IMG/VR virus record: IMGVR_UViG_3300006155_000234 | From: a virus | Lineage: Duplodnaviria; Heunggongvirae; Uroviricota; Caudoviricetes | DNA: 64,000 nt | Direction: 5' to 3' (one strand) | Shown: positions 54,093-60,145 of the stretch, in pieces | Position numbering within the stretch: position 1 is the stretch's first letter | Layout: every line of letters begins with the position of its first letter | Notes under the pieces: generated by a model | What the model was told of the DNA's origin: nothing | The model's input: the letters and a program-made list of their open reading frames with translations, nothing else | Databases searched by the model: none | Translations under genes and position numbers: made by a program

Positions 54093-54200
54093 ATATAGAA
54101 GATGTTTTAATTACACTATTTTTGAATACTATATTATCTCCTTAGAGAATACTTTATATGATTTTAGAACATTATGTGTATATCTTATGGGGGTATTGTT

Positions 54201-54845
54201 ATGAGTAATTCAGAAGATGGTAACAATAGTCTGGAGCTTACACATGATGAGGCTCTAGAACTATTTGAAAAAAATAAAGCACTTGCTGAAAGTTTTGCAA
54301 AGAAATATTATAAAACAGGATATTGGGAGTTTGACCATGCATTGCAAATTGCTTATGAAGGATTGTGGAGAGCATGTGTTCATTACAAGCCATCAAAAGG
54401 TTTTCAACTTTCAACATTGGCTTGGAGAATAATGACAAATAGATTTATAGAAGAACAGAAAGAGAAAGACAGACAACCAAGTATTGCGTTTAGTTTAGAT
54501 GAATTTTCTGTTGTTGATGGATTAGATGAAGGAAATCTTCCAATAGCATTAATGGATGTATTAGAAGATGATTATAGTAATATAGACAGGATGGAAGAAC
54601 AAGAAAATTTAAAAGATTTGAAACAAGATATTGTTTATATATTAGATGACATAGCAGAGGAACTTAAAGTTTCAAAAAGAGTTATAAAGACTGCTTATAT
54701 GTGTTTAAATGAACAAATCTTATATAAAAATCAGCAGGAAACTAAACAAGAGTTAAATAATTTATCTAAACTTGTTGGAACATCTTTGATTAGAAAAGTA
54801 AAAGTTATGCTACAAGAGAGATTATCAGATTTAGATTATAATTAA
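54201..54845 (+). CDS. Sigma-70-family RNA polymerase sigma factor
   Basis: LFEKNKALAESFAKKY...DHALQIAYEGLWRAC..Y.PSKGFQLST.AW..M.N.F = regions 2.1-2.4. Confidence 0.85.
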   Translation: MSNSEDGNNSLELTHDEALELFEKNKALAESFAKKYYKTGYWEFDHALQIAYEGLWRACVHYKPSKGFQLSTLAWRIMTNRFIEEQKEKDRQPSIAFSLDEFSVVDGLDEGNLPIALMDVLEDDYSNIDRMEEQENLKDLKQDIVYILDDIAEELKVSKRVIKTAYMCLNEQILYKNQQETKQELNNLSKLVGTSLIRKVKVMLQERLSDLDYN

Positions 54846-56141: not shown

Positions 56142-56357
56142 ATGAAGATTTTAGTTATGGTTGAATTATTATTAATATTGATAGTATTTTCAATAAAATA
56201 TATAATAAGACTATATCAAAAACATAAAGATAAAACTAGGGTAAAAACTGTTTTAAATTATTTACATCAAAAAACAGGAAACATAGAAGTAGAAAAACTA
56301 CAAAAGATGTTAGGAGTTGGTGATGATGCAATTAAGAATAAGAACAAAAAAAGATAA
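56142..56357 (+). CDS. Small membrane protein (N-terminal TM helix)
   Basis: MKILVMVELLLILIVFSI hydrophobic segment within ORF 56133..56357. Confidence 0.55.
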   Translation: MKILVMVELLLILIVFSIKYIIRLYQKHKDKTRVKTVLNYLHQKTGNIEVEKLQKMLGVGDDAIKNKNKKR

Positions 56358-56520
56358 TGAAGATATGTATGTTATATTAAGTAATCATATTCCACAGTAT
56401 AAAGAATTTATAGATATTGGTGAACATAGATTTATTGTAGAATATGTAACACATGTTGTAGATGATACTACATTCGATGTTATTACAGATGTTATAATAT
56501 ATGTAAAAGAAATTTATTAG
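56326..56520 (+). CDS. Small hypothetical protein
   Basis: ORF 56317..56520; AGGAG RBS. Confidence 0.5.
   Translation: MQLRIRTKKDNEDMYVILSNHIPQYKEFIDIGEHRFIVEYVTHVVDDTTFDVITDVIIYVKEIY
56487..56498 (+). promoter_or_regulatory. AGATGTTATAAT phage promoter motif upstream of the non-coding array
   Basis: Near-full consensus 34 nt before the first repeat unit; lies inside the end of the 56326 ORF. Confidence 0.55.
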
Positions 56521-56531
56521 ATTGGTTATAT

Positions 56532-56934
56532 GGTTAAAGAAGTTCCTATTAGAGAGATACTGATAATATCTTAACAATACTTCTCACCTATAATATAAAG
56601 TCTTGGTTAAAGAAGTTCCTATTCAACAATAAAAAACATTGGGTACAAATGTGACTATTTCCCATTGTGGAAAATAGCACAGAATACTTCTCACCAGACA
56701 TATAAGCAATATTAGAATTTATTATAATTTCTCTTGCAAGAGTTCCTTTTTCGGAGAGGTTTTCCATGAGCTTTTGAAAATCATGTTATGTAGAAATAGG
56801 ATGAGTGAAGAGTTATTTGGTAAAGGAAAGATTAAAAGAGTTCCTATTTAAAAGATGAAAATTTATCAGATTATTGACCCATATTCTAATTTTAGTTAGA
56901 ATGGTTGATAATCAAGCAGTTGTTACTCTTCATC
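56532..56934 (+). ncRNA. Candidate structured non-coding RNA made of repeated stem-loop units
   Basis: Units 56532-56588, 56605-56695 and 56830-56934 share G(G/A)T-TAA-[6 bp]-TCCTATT...[6 bp]-C-A(C/T)C with compensatory changes; a partial unit starts at 56738; no plausible ORF. Confidence 0.6.
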
Positions 56935-56968
56935 GCAATATTGCTTCTTTAATTTTAAATAATTTATT

Positions 56969-56999
56969 AAAAACCAATTTCATTATGATTTTGGTTTTT
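56969..56999. terminator. Hairpin AAAAACCAA...TTGGTTTTT closing the non-coding array
   Basis: 9-bp outer stem plus inner TCAT/ATGA; A/T tails on both sides. Confidence 0.65.
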
Positions 57000-57009
57000 C
57001 TATATTATA

Positions 57010-57036: not shown

Positions 57037-57240
57037 ATGAGAAATCCAGAACGAATACCAAGAATATTGGAGAAAATAGAAGCAATTTGGATAAATGAAC
57101 CTGATACCAGATTGGGTCAATTACTTGTTAATTTTGCACCACCAAGAATGCAAAGTGATATTTTTTATTTTGAAGATGATAATTTAGAGGTGGAGTTAGA
57201 TAAAAAAATTGAAAAGATAATGAAAGGAAGGGGTAAATAA
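57037..57240 (+). CDS. Small conserved phage protein (MRNPERIPRIL...W...PD.RLGQLL.N)
   Basis: Pattern common in phage hypothetical proteins; ATG at 57037 within ORF 57025. Confidence 0.65.
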   Translation: MRNPERIPRILEKIEAIWINEPDTRLGQLLVNFAPPRMQSDIFYFEDDNLEVELDKKIEKIMKGRGK

Positions 57241-57557
57241 TGTCTTTATTTGGTTATGTAGAAGGAGATTCTAATTGTGACATTAATAATGTTATATTGA
57301 GATGTGCTTGTGTAGATAGATGTGAACTGGAAGTTGAAAAAGGAGTAAATGTAAATGCACCTAATGAATATTATTTTATACTTAAATCAAAATCAAGATA
57401 TGATAATCTAAATATTATTGAAGTGATAAAGTTAAAATTAAAAAAGATATGGTGTATTTTGAGAGGGAAAGATTATACATATTATGATATTGTAGTAGAA
57501 GAACCATCAATGAAAAAGTTTATTGAAAGTTTACAAAAATTAGTAGAAAGTAAATAG
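57240..57557 (+). CDS. Hypothetical protein
   Basis: ORF track; translationally coupled. Confidence 0.6.
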   Translation: MSLFGYVEGDSNCDINNVILRCACVDRCELEVEKGVNVNAPNEYYFILKSKSRYDNLNIIEVIKLKLKKIWCILRGKDYTYYDIVVEEPSMKKFIESLQKLVESK

Positions 57558-57564
57558 ATGGGTT

Positions 57565-58020
57565 GTGATTAGTTTGTCTAATAGTGAATATTATATATTA
57601 AAATGTCCTGTATGTGATGTAGATATAACAAAAGTTATTGAACAACCAAGTAGAGAGGTTATATGCCCTAATTGTAAGAGAGTATTAGATTTATATTCTA
57701 TATTTGGTTATAATATGTGGTTATCTGAAATTGGTAAAACTACAAAAGTTAATAAAAAGCCAATTAAAGATGTTGTATATGATGAAACAGATATTGAATA
57801 TGACAGTGATGATTATGAATATGATGAAGAAACAATTATAGAAGATTACTTAAATAATAGTCATCTGTTTCAAAAAAGACCAGAAGCATTACATGAATTA
57901 TTACTTTTTAATGCAGATACTTGCTTAATGCAATTAAAGTATCTGATGAAAGTGGGATTTACTAGAAAAGAATCAATAGAAATAATTAAAAAATTAATAG
58001 AACAAAGTTTTCTATTATAG
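57565..58020 (+). CDS. Zinc-ribbon protein with acidic linker
   Basis: CPVC...CPNC; DEY-rich middle. Confidence 0.6.
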   Translation: MISLSNSEYYILKCPVCDVDITKVIEQPSREVICPNCKRVLDLYSIFGYNMWLSEIGKTTKVNKKPIKDVVYDETDIEYDSDDYEYDEETIIEDYLNNSHLFQKRPEALHELLLFNADTCLMQLKYLMKVGFTRKESIEIIKKLIEQSFLL

Positions 58021-58033
58021 TGGAGGTAGTTTT

Positions 58034-60145
58034 ATGAGTATGTTTGAAAGTACATTAAGGTTATTTAAAAGTGTTGTAGTAAAGAATTCTAAAAATTTAT
58101 CAGATATCCCTAATGAAAAAGCATTAAAATATGGTGTTTTTATATCTAAGGATGTTCCTAATAATATTATAGATGAGGCTATAAAACAATATGGTAGAAA
58201 TGGAGAAGAATTAAACCAAACATTTCATAAGTCATTATTTAAAGTAGCAAATGCAGATATAGAACAATTATATTATGAGCAATTATTACATTATTTTACT
58301 ACTTATGGAGCAGAAGCATTAGGTGTGTATAGTTCGGATAATGTTATAATACCAAAAGAAAAATTAGAAGTACCTGAATTAAAGGAAGATACTAAATTAA
58401 TTGTTATTAAACCTATAACAGAAGATGAACTTATATTGAGAATAAATAACTTGGTTACACAGAATTTAGCACTATCTAAAACAACAGTAAATGATATAAT
58501 GAATTTAAGTGATTACATAAATATTGATATGCACAAAAACACAGATGGATACTTTACAGATATAAAAAATAAAGAGATAAAGATTGCTTTATGTAGTAAG
58601 TTTAATATATTACCTAAGAGAGGCGATGAATTTTTAAGATACATACTTGCAAAATATTGTAATAAAACATTACTAATAAAAGATGAAGAAACAAAAAGAG
58701 CAATTAGATTTATTGATGAGAAAGAGCTAATAAAAGTTTTAGATAGATATAATGAATTATATGGATTTATTCCATTAGCAGAAACATATAATAGATTTAA
58801 AGATTTATTTATTTCTATGAAAAGAAAAGTACAACCATCAATTTCAAACTATTACAAAGAAGAAGATTTGAATGCCATTAAGAGAATAAATAAAATTATA
58901 AATCATATTATGCGATTGAGTAAAGACTACCATAAACCAATGCCAACAAATGATTTGAATAATTTTATAGATTATTTAGATAGATTGAAAAAAAATCTAA
59001 AATCAAATGATGACTATATAAAAATAGTTACAGATAAGGTTAAGGATTCAGGAGTATATACTGCAATAAAATTATTGAACTATTTAGAGTATATTAAATG
59101 TAGCAACTTAGATTATAGTATGTATAAAATAAGAAACAATAAGATATTTATAAAAGATAAAATAAATTATAAGTCAGTTGATAGTTTTGATATATTATTA
59201 CTAAAGAATATTATTAAAAATTATTTGAAAGAGAATGTAAGTGGAAAAACTGTATATATTCCTCATAATGTTTTATATAAATTACCACAATCTGAAAAAC
59301 AATTTGTAGGTAATATTCCATTTGGTACTAAGATATTATTTAATAAGCAACCTTTATTAGTGGGTATTCATTGGTGTAATTACAAAGACGATAATAAAGA
59401 AGTGAGAACAGATATAGATTTACATTTAACATCTGAAAAATATAATCTTGGATGGAATACTTCATATAGAAAAGATGATGATATATTATTTACAGGAGAT
59501 AATACGAATGCACCTTTACCACTAGGAGCATCTGAATTCATGTATATTAGTAATGATGTGGAAAATACAACATTTAATCTTAAATTAAATAACTATACAA
59601 GAGATGTTGGACCTCTAAAATATGAATTAATTATAGCATCTGGTTACTATTTAGATAAAGATAGCTTGAATAAAAATTTTGTAGTAGACCCTAATTCTAT
59701 TATAGCAAAAATACCAATGGAAATGGAATTAGGAAAAGCAGAACAGGTTATAGGTATTTTAGATATTAATGATAGTAATATCAATTTCACATTTACAGAT
59801 TTAGTTACTTCAAATTCAAGTGTATCAGGAAATAAACAGTTTGAAGAAAAATTAAGAAATTTTATAAAAATACAAACTCAAACACAATTAGATTTAGGAT
59901 TAATGCTTATTGAAAGTGGTGCTAGAATTGTAGATGGACCAACAATTCCTGTTGAAGTATCTTATGTATTAGATGAAAATATGAATTTAATTAAACAAGA
60001 AGAAGCAGATGAAAAAGGAATAACATATACAGGTGATGAGATGTATTTTAGGAAAGAAGAAGTACCTGTTGATTTTGATTTTAGTTTAGAAGCTTTGACT
60101 AAAGATAGTTTTATTAAATTATTAAGTTTCGGTATTGAAGGTTAA
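58034..60145 (+). CDS. Large conserved hypothetical protein (703 aa), possible C-terminal TerD-like region
   Basis: N-terminal NQTFHKS...EQLLHYFTTYG; C-terminal VGIHW...DIDLH...GWN..YR...FTGD.T.AP...GASEF. The family assignment is tentative. Confidence 0.5.
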   Translation: MSMFESTLRLFKSVVVKNSKNLSDIPNEKALKYGVFISKDVPNNIIDEAIKQYGRNGEELNQTFHKSLFKVANADIEQLYYEQLLHYFTTYGAEALGVYSSDNVIIPKEKLEVPELKEDTKLIVIKPITEDELILRINNLVTQNLALSKTTVNDIMNLSDYINIDMHKNTDGYFTDIKNKEIKIALCSKFNILPKRGDEFLRYILAKYCNKTLLIKDEETKRAIRFIDEKELIKVLDRYNELYGFIPLAETYNRFKDLFISMKRKVQPSISNYYKEEDLNAIKRINKIINHIMRLSKDYHKPMPTNDLNNFIDYLDRLKKNLKSNDDYIKIVTDKVKDSGVYTAIKLLNYLEYIKCSNLDYSMYKIRNNKIFIKDKINYKSVDSFDILLLKNIIKNYLKENVSGKTVYIPHNVLYKLPQSEKQFVGNIPFGTKILFNKQPLLVGIHWCNYKDDNKEVRTDIDLHLTSEKYNLGWNTSYRKDDDILFTGDNTNAPLPLGASEFMYISNDVENTTFNLKLNNYTRDVGPLKYELIIASGYYLDKDSLNKNFVVDPNSIIAKIPMEMELGKAEQVIGILDINDSNINFTFTDLVTSNSSVSGNKQFEEKLRNFIKIQTQTQLDLGLMLIESGARIVDGPTIPVEVSYVLDENMNLIKQEEADEKGITYTGDEMYFRKEEVPVDFDFSLEALTKDSFIKLLSFGIEG

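Follow-up and report, generated by a model that had tools for sequence, protein, structure and literature searches.

A non-coding array in a tightly packed phage genome

The window analyzed here, a 64,000-nt stretch of the Caudoviricetes record IMGVR_UViG_3300006155_000234 in IMG/VR, belongs to a 220-kb contig (C3) that was binned with a 2.39-Mb assembly of 27% G+C. Its genes are nearly all on the + strand and are phage-like, encoding DNA polymerase A, a clamp, helicases, SbcC, GroEL, methyltransferases, and a sigma factor. Coding sequence is tightly packed around a 516-nt gap between the open reading frames (ORFs) at 56317-56520 and 57037-57240, and this gap is occupied by an array of stem-loop units. 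The two ends of each unit are complementary and form a short stem with fixed unpaired bases, called the handle below, around an interior that differs from unit to unit. The handle is a widespread phage RNA family outside Rfam, and it travels with the gene for a 703-aa protein. The full units in the window are as follows.

56532-56588, + strand: unit 1, handle GGU-UAA-AGAAGU-UCCU ... ACUUCU-C-ACC; covariance-model E 1.2e-10
56605-56695, + strand: unit 2, handle as in unit 1; covariance-model E 1.7e-8
56830-56934, + strand: unit 4, handle GAU-UAA-AAGAGU-UCCU ... ACUCUU-C-AUC; covariance-model E 1.3e-6, folding z -3.5

An earlier note on this DNA had described three full units at these positions, and both the sequence and a structural pattern search bear the description out. 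The pattern NNN-TAA-N6-TCCT...rc(N6)-C-rc(NNN), in which rc is the reverse complement and the span is at most 200 nt, occurred at exactly three sites in the 2.39-Mb assembly; a much looser pattern search added only AT-rich chance matches without the full signature. A covariance model made from the units of other phages likewise matched only units 1, 2, and 4 in the window, and its one match in the rest of the assembly was weak and partial (C2:341129-341158, E 0.04).

The units are 57, 91, and 105 nt long, and the handle alone is common to them. Folding supported the inner hairpins, which had been noted as different in each unit. Unit 1 encloses an anticodon-arm-like hairpin with a 7-nt loop (AGAUA-CUGAUAA-UAUCU), unit 2 encloses two hairpins (ACAUU-GGGUACA-AAUGU and one of 8 bp), and unit 4 encloses the hairpin GAUGA-AAAU-UUAUC together with a long hairpin, GAUUAUUGACC/GGUUGAUAAUC, that contains two G·U pairs. 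The suggestion that this is a non-coding, multi-unit structured RNA of no known family has stood up, with covariation in homologous loci on one side and the recommended Rfam check on the other: searches at the gathering score and at E up to 10 returned only noise-level matches to small nucleolar RNA and U7 models in the window, and Rfam searches over the units of 12 related loci gave no match. Neither ARAGORN nor Rfam model RF00005 called a tRNA in the window.

Covariation defines the handle

Several searches with the locus itself were uninformative. Exact 17-mer scans of IMG/VR and of species genomes produced almost only chance single matches, back-translated searches of IMG/VR with two single neighboring proteins produced nothing, no close relative of the window was found among GenBank phages, and a GenBank phage DNA search with the locus found no homolog. 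A DNA search of 27 genomes of the same genus gave only short matches (E>1e-6) at the AT-rich 3′ end and left the units uncovered. The 703-aa protein had hundreds of relatives in metagenomic phage contigs, and the loci around these relatives supplied the comparisons that follow.

First, the closest loci were syntenic, retained a gap of ~500 nt, and carried the same units with compensatory changes. Orthologs of unit 2 had inner stems AGGAGU/ACUCCU, GGAAGU/ACUUCC, or GAGAGU/ACUCUC; relatives of unit 4 combined GAC/GUC with GAAAGU/ACUUUC or GAU/AUC with ACAAGU/ACUUGU; and GGC/GCC replaced the GGU/ACC outer stem among close syntenic loci. The interior of unit 1 also varied, with loops CUGGUAA, CUGUUAA, or AUGGUAA in some orthologs and the hairpin AGAU-UGGUU-AUCU in others, and the latter hairpin was found again in one unit of the human-gut phage Phass-1. 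Second, an alignment-based scan of metagenomes and IMG/VR added 114 loci in which the protein was 25-55% identical; nearly all of these had the same hairpin, on the strand of the gene, in arrays of 1-7. The total came to 192 distinct units, among which the inner stem took 58 forms and the outer stem 20. The compensatory stem changes around a fixed UAA/C loop and UCCU, which the earlier note had read from three units, thus recur as large-scale covariation in homologous loci.

Third, pairing was assessed from a 5′ anchor defined by sequence alone (A-N-A loop, four unconstrained bases, G/C-U, and TCCT, in that order). A perfect 9-bp partner lay within 200 nt of 201 of the 305 distinct anchors on the gene strand, compared with ~22 when partners were swapped and with 2 of 76 anchors on the opposite strand. 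Fourth, covariation analysis, proposed in the note, gave both-side changes in 8 of 9 pairs in an alignment of 63 short units. This alignment had a covariation score of 0.717, whereas shuffles scored 0.235 and slid registers no more than 0.16; these units were selected for pairing, which makes their 100% paired figure circular but does not affect the diversity of pair types. Finally, where near-perfect partners differed from Watson-Crick pairing at a single position, the mismatch was G·U in 41 cases and A·C in 8, and units always had the orientation of the neighboring gene. This G·U excess fits + strand RNA and is at odds with a symmetric DNA element. As a control, the structural pattern gave 5 chance matches in 233 unrelated loci taken from the 17-mer scans, none of which had a homolog of the 703-aa protein.

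The resulting handle has a 3-bp outer helix, an A-N-A (U-A-A)/C internal loop, and a 6-bp helix ending in G/C-U, followed by UCCU on the 5′ side, with U-U-A at re-entry on the 3′ side. Among unpaired positions, A4, A6, and U12-U13-C14-C15-U16 were fully or nearly invariant, as were the lone C facing the loop and the U-A at the entry to the 3′ strand. Interiors ranged from 13 to ~155 nt and whole units from 39 to 181 nt. When the conserved nucleotides were compared by eye with the K-turn, T-loop, tetraloop-receptor, and hammerhead motifs, none of these fit. We found no description of the motif in the literature; an unnamed entry for it may exist among the 10,006 candidate viral RNAs catalogued in 2023 (PMC10690425).

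Handle units travel with one protein gene

58034-60145, + strand: 703-aa protein, candidate handle partner; predicted alpha-solenoid at residues 1-405 and TerD-like beta-sandwich at residues ~437-608

The units of the window lie 1.1-1.5 kb upstream of this gene and on the same + strand. Linkage was counted in 76 distinct loci that covered the start of the gene and no less than 600 nt before it. A unit was present within 2.5 kb of the 703-aa homolog, on either side, in 72 of the 76 loci and upstream of it in 70. The last unit ended no more than 55 nt from the gene start in 40 of these 70 loci, a single unit preceded the gene in 25 of the 76, and no unit lay inside the gene. In five complete or near-complete phage genomes of 180-214 kb, every match to the covariance model, which was built from short units, fell beside the gene. 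The protein encoded at 58034 had been listed before among several candidate partners, and its standing has risen with the observation that this one gene accompanies the units across distant phages.

Three cultured phages carry homologs: S-CRM01 (g174) and S-CBWM1 (gp22), which infect Synechococcus, and Phass-1. In both Synechococcus phages the homolog gene sits within the tRNA cluster, flanked by five to six units in S-CRM01 and by two in S-CBWM1. Phass-1 has ten units, six of them beside a transfer-messenger RNA (tmRNA) gene 1.3 kb from the homolog and four in a tRNA array 10 kb away. Members of the family occur in T4-like cyanophages, in a human-gut phage with recoded stop codons, in phages from rumen and marine sources, and in jumbo phages of the mouse gut. 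Atlas clusters of relatives of the 703-aa protein were mostly viral, and no copy was found in 398 other scored genomes of the host's phylum.

The protein had no match in Pfam, NCBIfam, PHROG, or PDB sequences. Its AlphaFold2 model had a mean predicted local distance difference test score (pLDDT) of 86.7 and a predicted template-modeling score (pTM) of 0.83. In this model, residues 437-608 resembled 2qz7 (Z 10.4, root-mean-square deviation 3.3 Å over 149 aligned residues, Foldseek probability 1), and neighbors in the AlphaFold DB were uncharacterized or annotated as 'TerD family'. The N-terminal domain folded alone gave only generic helical-repeat matches (Z up to 7, Foldseek E above 0.06), and thus no family can be named for the alpha-solenoid. 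Identity with Ro60 was considered and rejected, as the fold is TerD-like and TROVE (PF05731) is absent from the assembly, whereas control genomes were positive.

As a separate observation, Rfam identified phage-borne tmRNA genes near unit arrays and a 703-aa homolog in two unrelated phages.

L269:628-1051: tmRNA gene
L368:6635-7073: tmRNA gene

The handle encloses tRNAs, tRNA-like bodies, and hairpins

About one-quarter of the units enclosed only a short A/U-rich loop, and others held one hairpin with a 7-nt anticodon-like loop, as in unit 1 of the window. Among the 57 units with inserts of at least 62 nt, ARAGORN in circular mode called a wrap-around cloverleaf in 39. Three of the 39 were also called as ordinary linear tRNAs, and all three encode CCA (Ile-GAU, Ile-AAU, and Met-CAU). 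The other 36 were circularly permuted bodies in which a T arm is followed by an acceptor stem sealed by a 3-5-nt loop and then by a D arm, often with an intact anticodon arm (Thr, Asn, Ile, or Ser) branching beside the handle. In Phass-1, a handle unit encloses the annotated amber suppressor tRNA (Sup-CTA), whose encoded CCA directly abuts the U-U-A-C entry of the handle, and two further units flank it.

L378:14233-14344 (OQ749652.1 105732-105843), minus strand: unit around the Phass-1 Sup-CTA tRNA

Among the roles that the earlier note had listed for the array, a scaffold with variable cargo is the best fit to this range of short loops, hairpins, permuted tRNA-like bodies, and tRNAs.

Signals and a third domain around the units

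56487-56498, + strand: promoter-like motif AGATGTTATAAT, an extended -10 element (TGnTATAAT), 34 nt before unit 1
8839, 25197, 46913, 54081, and 57011: examples of further AGATGTTATAAT sites
56969-57004 (hairpin 56969-56999), + strand: intrinsic-terminator-like hairpin AAAAACCAA...UUGGUUUUU plus a U run; -10.1 kcal/mol, z -4.05
56704-56946, + strand: third RNA domain of 243 nt, closed by a long-range helix of 56704-56713 with 56937-56946 and holding the half-unit region and unit 4
56734-56750, + strand: degenerate 5′ half-unit UUGC-AAGAGU-UCCU-UUU, with two mismatches

Both signals previously proposed to bracket the array are in place. The motif upstream of unit 1 is enriched in the window (20 sites compared with ~6 expected), mostly just before + strand genes, and is probably the main promoter class of this phage. 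At the unit-1 position, its core, AGATGTTA, was invariant in 10 related loci and the remainder nearly so. The copy at 56487 would start a non-coding transcript at about 56505. The stem of the terminator-like hairpin carries compensatory changes in relatives (CCAG/CUGG, GCCAGUAU/AUACUGGU, and ACCGAU/AUCGGU); a simple terminator scan did not call the hairpin at 56969-56999, because it has too few G-C pairs.

The arms of the third domain form a perfect 10-nt inverted repeat, and the 7-bp core of its helix (56707-56713/56937-56943) showed both-side changes in 6 of 7 pairs among 10 relatives. Two smaller claims about this region survived in part. A partial unit had been placed at 56738, and a 5′ half is indeed present there, but it has no 3′ partner and is not conserved; its TCCT varies in relatives, one form being AAGAGTATTT. 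Similarly, AAATAGGA at 56794-56801 is the exact complement of TCCTATTT, as had been noted, but as a conserved pairing it is only partly kept, and its possible pairing with the invariant UCCUAU lies beyond what covariation can judge.

Two further sequence features deserve mention. In two relatives, a promoter-like block of the form TTGACA-17-TATAAT is inserted between the phage motif and unit 1.

L374:~835-880 and L376:~885-930: TTGACA-17-TATAAT insert (alignment columns 108-146)

Within unit 2, GAAGTTCCTATTC (56612-56624) is identical to a 13-bp arm of the FRT site of yeast FLP. We judged this identity a coincidence, given the RNA-like covariation and the lack of both a spacer and an inverted partner.

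Neighboring genes

54174-54845: sigma-70-like factor encoded in the window
57037-58020: three small ORFs (67, 105, and 151 aa) between the RNA array and the 703-aa gene
C3:123300-124323 and 135029-135188: phage tRNA genes called by ARAGORN, 27-40 kb past the window
L248:10980-11828 and L251:10880-11737: Thg1-like gene (tRNA-His guanylyltransferase family) in close relatives

The three small ORFs are kept in the close clade only, not across the wider family, and the third (151 aa) begins with a zinc-ribbon-like CxxC. None of the tRNA genes on C3 is enclosed by a handle unit, which suggests that the RNA array and the protein gene moved away from the tRNA cluster in the clade of the window. The Thg1-like gene of close relatives lies ~4 kb 3′ of the 703-aa homolog, and the equivalent position falls beyond the end of the window.

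A candidate handle-binding particle

The comparisons establish a widespread RNA structure family on the + strand, in which the handle is constant and the interior free, and its genetic tie to one phage protein family and, in many phages, to tRNA clusters. We propose that a + strand non-coding RNA would be transcribed between the promoter motif at 56487 and the terminator hairpin (56969-56999), that the 5′ and 3′ ends of each unit would pair into the handle and leave the interior free to vary, and that the 703-aa protein would recognize the handle, much as Ro60 recognizes the terminal stem of Y RNAs. The resulting particle might present or control tRNA-like cargo, which could act as decoys for tRNA-targeting host factors or be tRNA precursors held by the particle. 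The units are best read as a modular handle-plus-cargo RNA family that is built like Y RNAs and is probably bound or processed by the neighboring protein; to the handle-binding particle that presents or controls tRNA-like cargo, we assign a probability of roughly 55%.

Several observations weigh against this proposal. Units 1 and 2 have unexceptional folding energies, and for them the minus strand folds equally well or better; structural support comes from covariation, not from thermodynamics. The long inserts of the window, those of units 2 and 4, are not tRNA-like by ARAGORN, even in circular mode. In the clade of the window, a terminator, a new promoter motif, and the three small ORFs lie between the array and the 703-aa gene, which weakens simple co-transcription. 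The predicted N-terminal solenoid has no informative structural match, and we know of no established RNA-binding role for the TerD fold. Finally, the handle is conserved across phages of very different hosts, and for this reason its partner could be a universal host factor rather than a phage protein.

The main rival, which we consider distinctly less probable than the particle, is a processing or stability cassette in which the handle is a transient leader-trailer clamp that marks tRNAs, mimics, and hairpins for excision, timed maturation, or protection, with host RNase III, E, or P or the 703-aa protein as the nuclease. Such a clamp would account for the way in which the handle joins the 5′ leader and 3′ trailer of complete CCA-encoding tRNAs (Ile, Met, and the Phass-1 amber suppressor), for the head-to-tail order of units with short AU-rich spacers, and for the location of the family within tRNA clusters in cyanophages and Phass-1. 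Most cargos, however, are closed tRNA-like bodies with UUCG- or GNRA-type caps, or short loops, and have no obvious mature product. Moreover, the invariance of UCCU and the A-N-A/C loop across unrelated hosts and the linkage to one gene suggest a dedicated partner over general RNases. The processing stems of rRNA and tRNA operons (RNase III type) resemble the units in that flanking sequences pair around a structured RNA that varies, but those stems are long and unconserved in sequence between distant hosts, whereas the handle combines a short length with invariant unpaired bases and with linkage to a single phage gene.

A cis-acting operator in the 5′ untranslated region seems unlikely. In this case, the handle would be an autoregulatory site for translation of the 703-aa gene and arrays would be duplicated operators, which agrees with the close approach of the last unit to the gene start (within 55 nt in 40 of 70 loci) and with the 25 loci that have a single upstream unit, short in several of them (for example, L253-L259). 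The array in the window, by contrast, ends in a terminator of its own, with three ORFs and 1 kb between it and the gene; units are also found on the downstream side of the gene and, in Phass-1, among tRNAs at a distance of 10 kb; and an operator has no need for tRNA or tRNA-like cargo.

It is very improbable that the units act at the level of DNA, as single-stranded hairpins or inverted repeats serving as recombination or cassette-insertion sites in the manner of integron attC sites. Their size (39-181 nt) and their conserved imperfect stem with unpaired bases do resemble attC sites, and unit number and cargo vary between related phages as they would in cassette shuffling. Nevertheless, the cargo lies within the hairpin and not between hairpins, no recombinase family was found among the neighboring proteins, the orientation is strictly that of the gene, a conserved promoter motif and terminator bracket the array, and the G·U excess over A·C (41 to 8) favors + strand RNA.

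We place similarly little weight on release of the cargo by a small self-cleaving ribozyme or by some other catalytic motif. The roughly ten unpaired nucleotides that are invariant in two loops, and the arrays in which the units often occur in phages, as do some ribozyme classes, would suit such a motif; no Rfam ribozyme matched, however, and a plain 6-bp helix parts the two conserved loops. The ribozyme and anti-Shine-Dalgarno roles raised in the earlier note are both unlikely.

Lastly, a divergent Y RNA of the YrlA type serving Ro60/Rsr, for which the modular layout of a terminal stem and a tRNA-like domain with a closed acceptor stem would speak (PMC4201824), is largely refuted by the lack of TROVE in the assembly (controls being positive), by a linked protein that is TerD-like and not of the TROVE/vWA fold, by a consensus of 192 units that contains neither GNCGAAN0-1G nor GGUCCGA, and by the absence of an Rfam Y_RNA or YrlA match.

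Resemblance to known systems

The closest parallel to the candidate handle-binding particle is nevertheless YrlA, in which Ro60 binds a conserved terminal stem and a tRNA-like domain has a closed acceptor stem; the motif that binds Ro60/Rsr is GGUCCGA, or GNCGAAN0-1G in bacteria (Chen et al., 2014, PMC4201824). In both families, the 5′ and 3′ ends make a terminal stem, many members carry a tRNA-like domain with T arm, D arm, and closed acceptor-like stem, and the RNA gene neighbors that of a large protein and, in phages, lies close to tRNA genes. The handle family differs in having the A-N-A/C loop and UCCU, no TROVE protein, and an alpha-solenoid/TerD-like candidate partner; its units form arrays of 1-7, some of them have no cargo at all and others one hairpin or a genuine tRNA, and in some an intact anticodon arm branches off to the side. 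The YrlA-like tRNA domain is found in the inserts of relatives (the 39 of 57 with a wrap-around cloverleaf) and is absent from the three window units. As the binding motif, the TROVE neighbor, and the Rfam models all fail, the handle family is an analogue of Y RNAs and not a member of them.

Permuted and split tRNA genes, known from Cyanidioschyzon merolae and Nanoarchaeum, also place the 3′ half before the 5′ half and pair the ends of the transcript. In handle cargo, by contrast, the acceptor end is sealed by a 3-5-nt loop that is often UUCG- or GNRA-like, and no mature tRNA can be released by RNase P or Z; there is also no bulge-helix-bulge, and the units of the window itself carry no tRNA-like body. 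The ToxI RNA of type III toxin-antitoxin systems shares with the array a promoter-driven set of structured RNA repeats, a terminator, a position upstream of protein genes, and a phage-related setting. ToxI repeats, however, are near-identical, have a fixed length of ~36 nt, and are cut by the adjacent ToxN, whereas the window units differ in length and interior. No ToxN/AbiQ-type gene was detected, and the downstream ORFs had no Pfam, PHROG, or NCBIfam match, although a very divergent toxin is possible.

Implications

A wider reading, which we offer tentatively and hold to be a good deal less certain than the particle itself, is that phages possess a ribonucleoprotein system parallel but unrelated to that of Ro60 and Y RNA. 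In such a system, the handle would be a universal grip for the alpha-solenoid/TerD-like protein, and the cargo exchanged by phages within it (mimics of tRNAs or of anticodon arms, and genuine tRNAs, one of them a recoding suppressor) would decoy tRNA-targeting host immunity or time tRNA maturation, including the code switch in recoded phages. Phage tRNA clusters matter in conflicts with tRNA-cleaving host defenses, and to our knowledge the non-tRNA RNAs within these clusters are largely uncharted. The handle around the amber suppressor tRNA of Phass-1 may bear on the timing of the code switch and hints at control of code switching.

The cultured cyanophages S-CRM01 and S-CBWM1 are systems in which these ideas can be tested directly. 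The handle itself is a natural modular scaffold that tolerates an arbitrary insert of 13-155 nt. Permuted tRNA mimicry on a protein-linked stem is not confined to Ro60 and Y RNA, and the family of 192 units provides a first functional lead for an unannotated, virus-dominated protein family.

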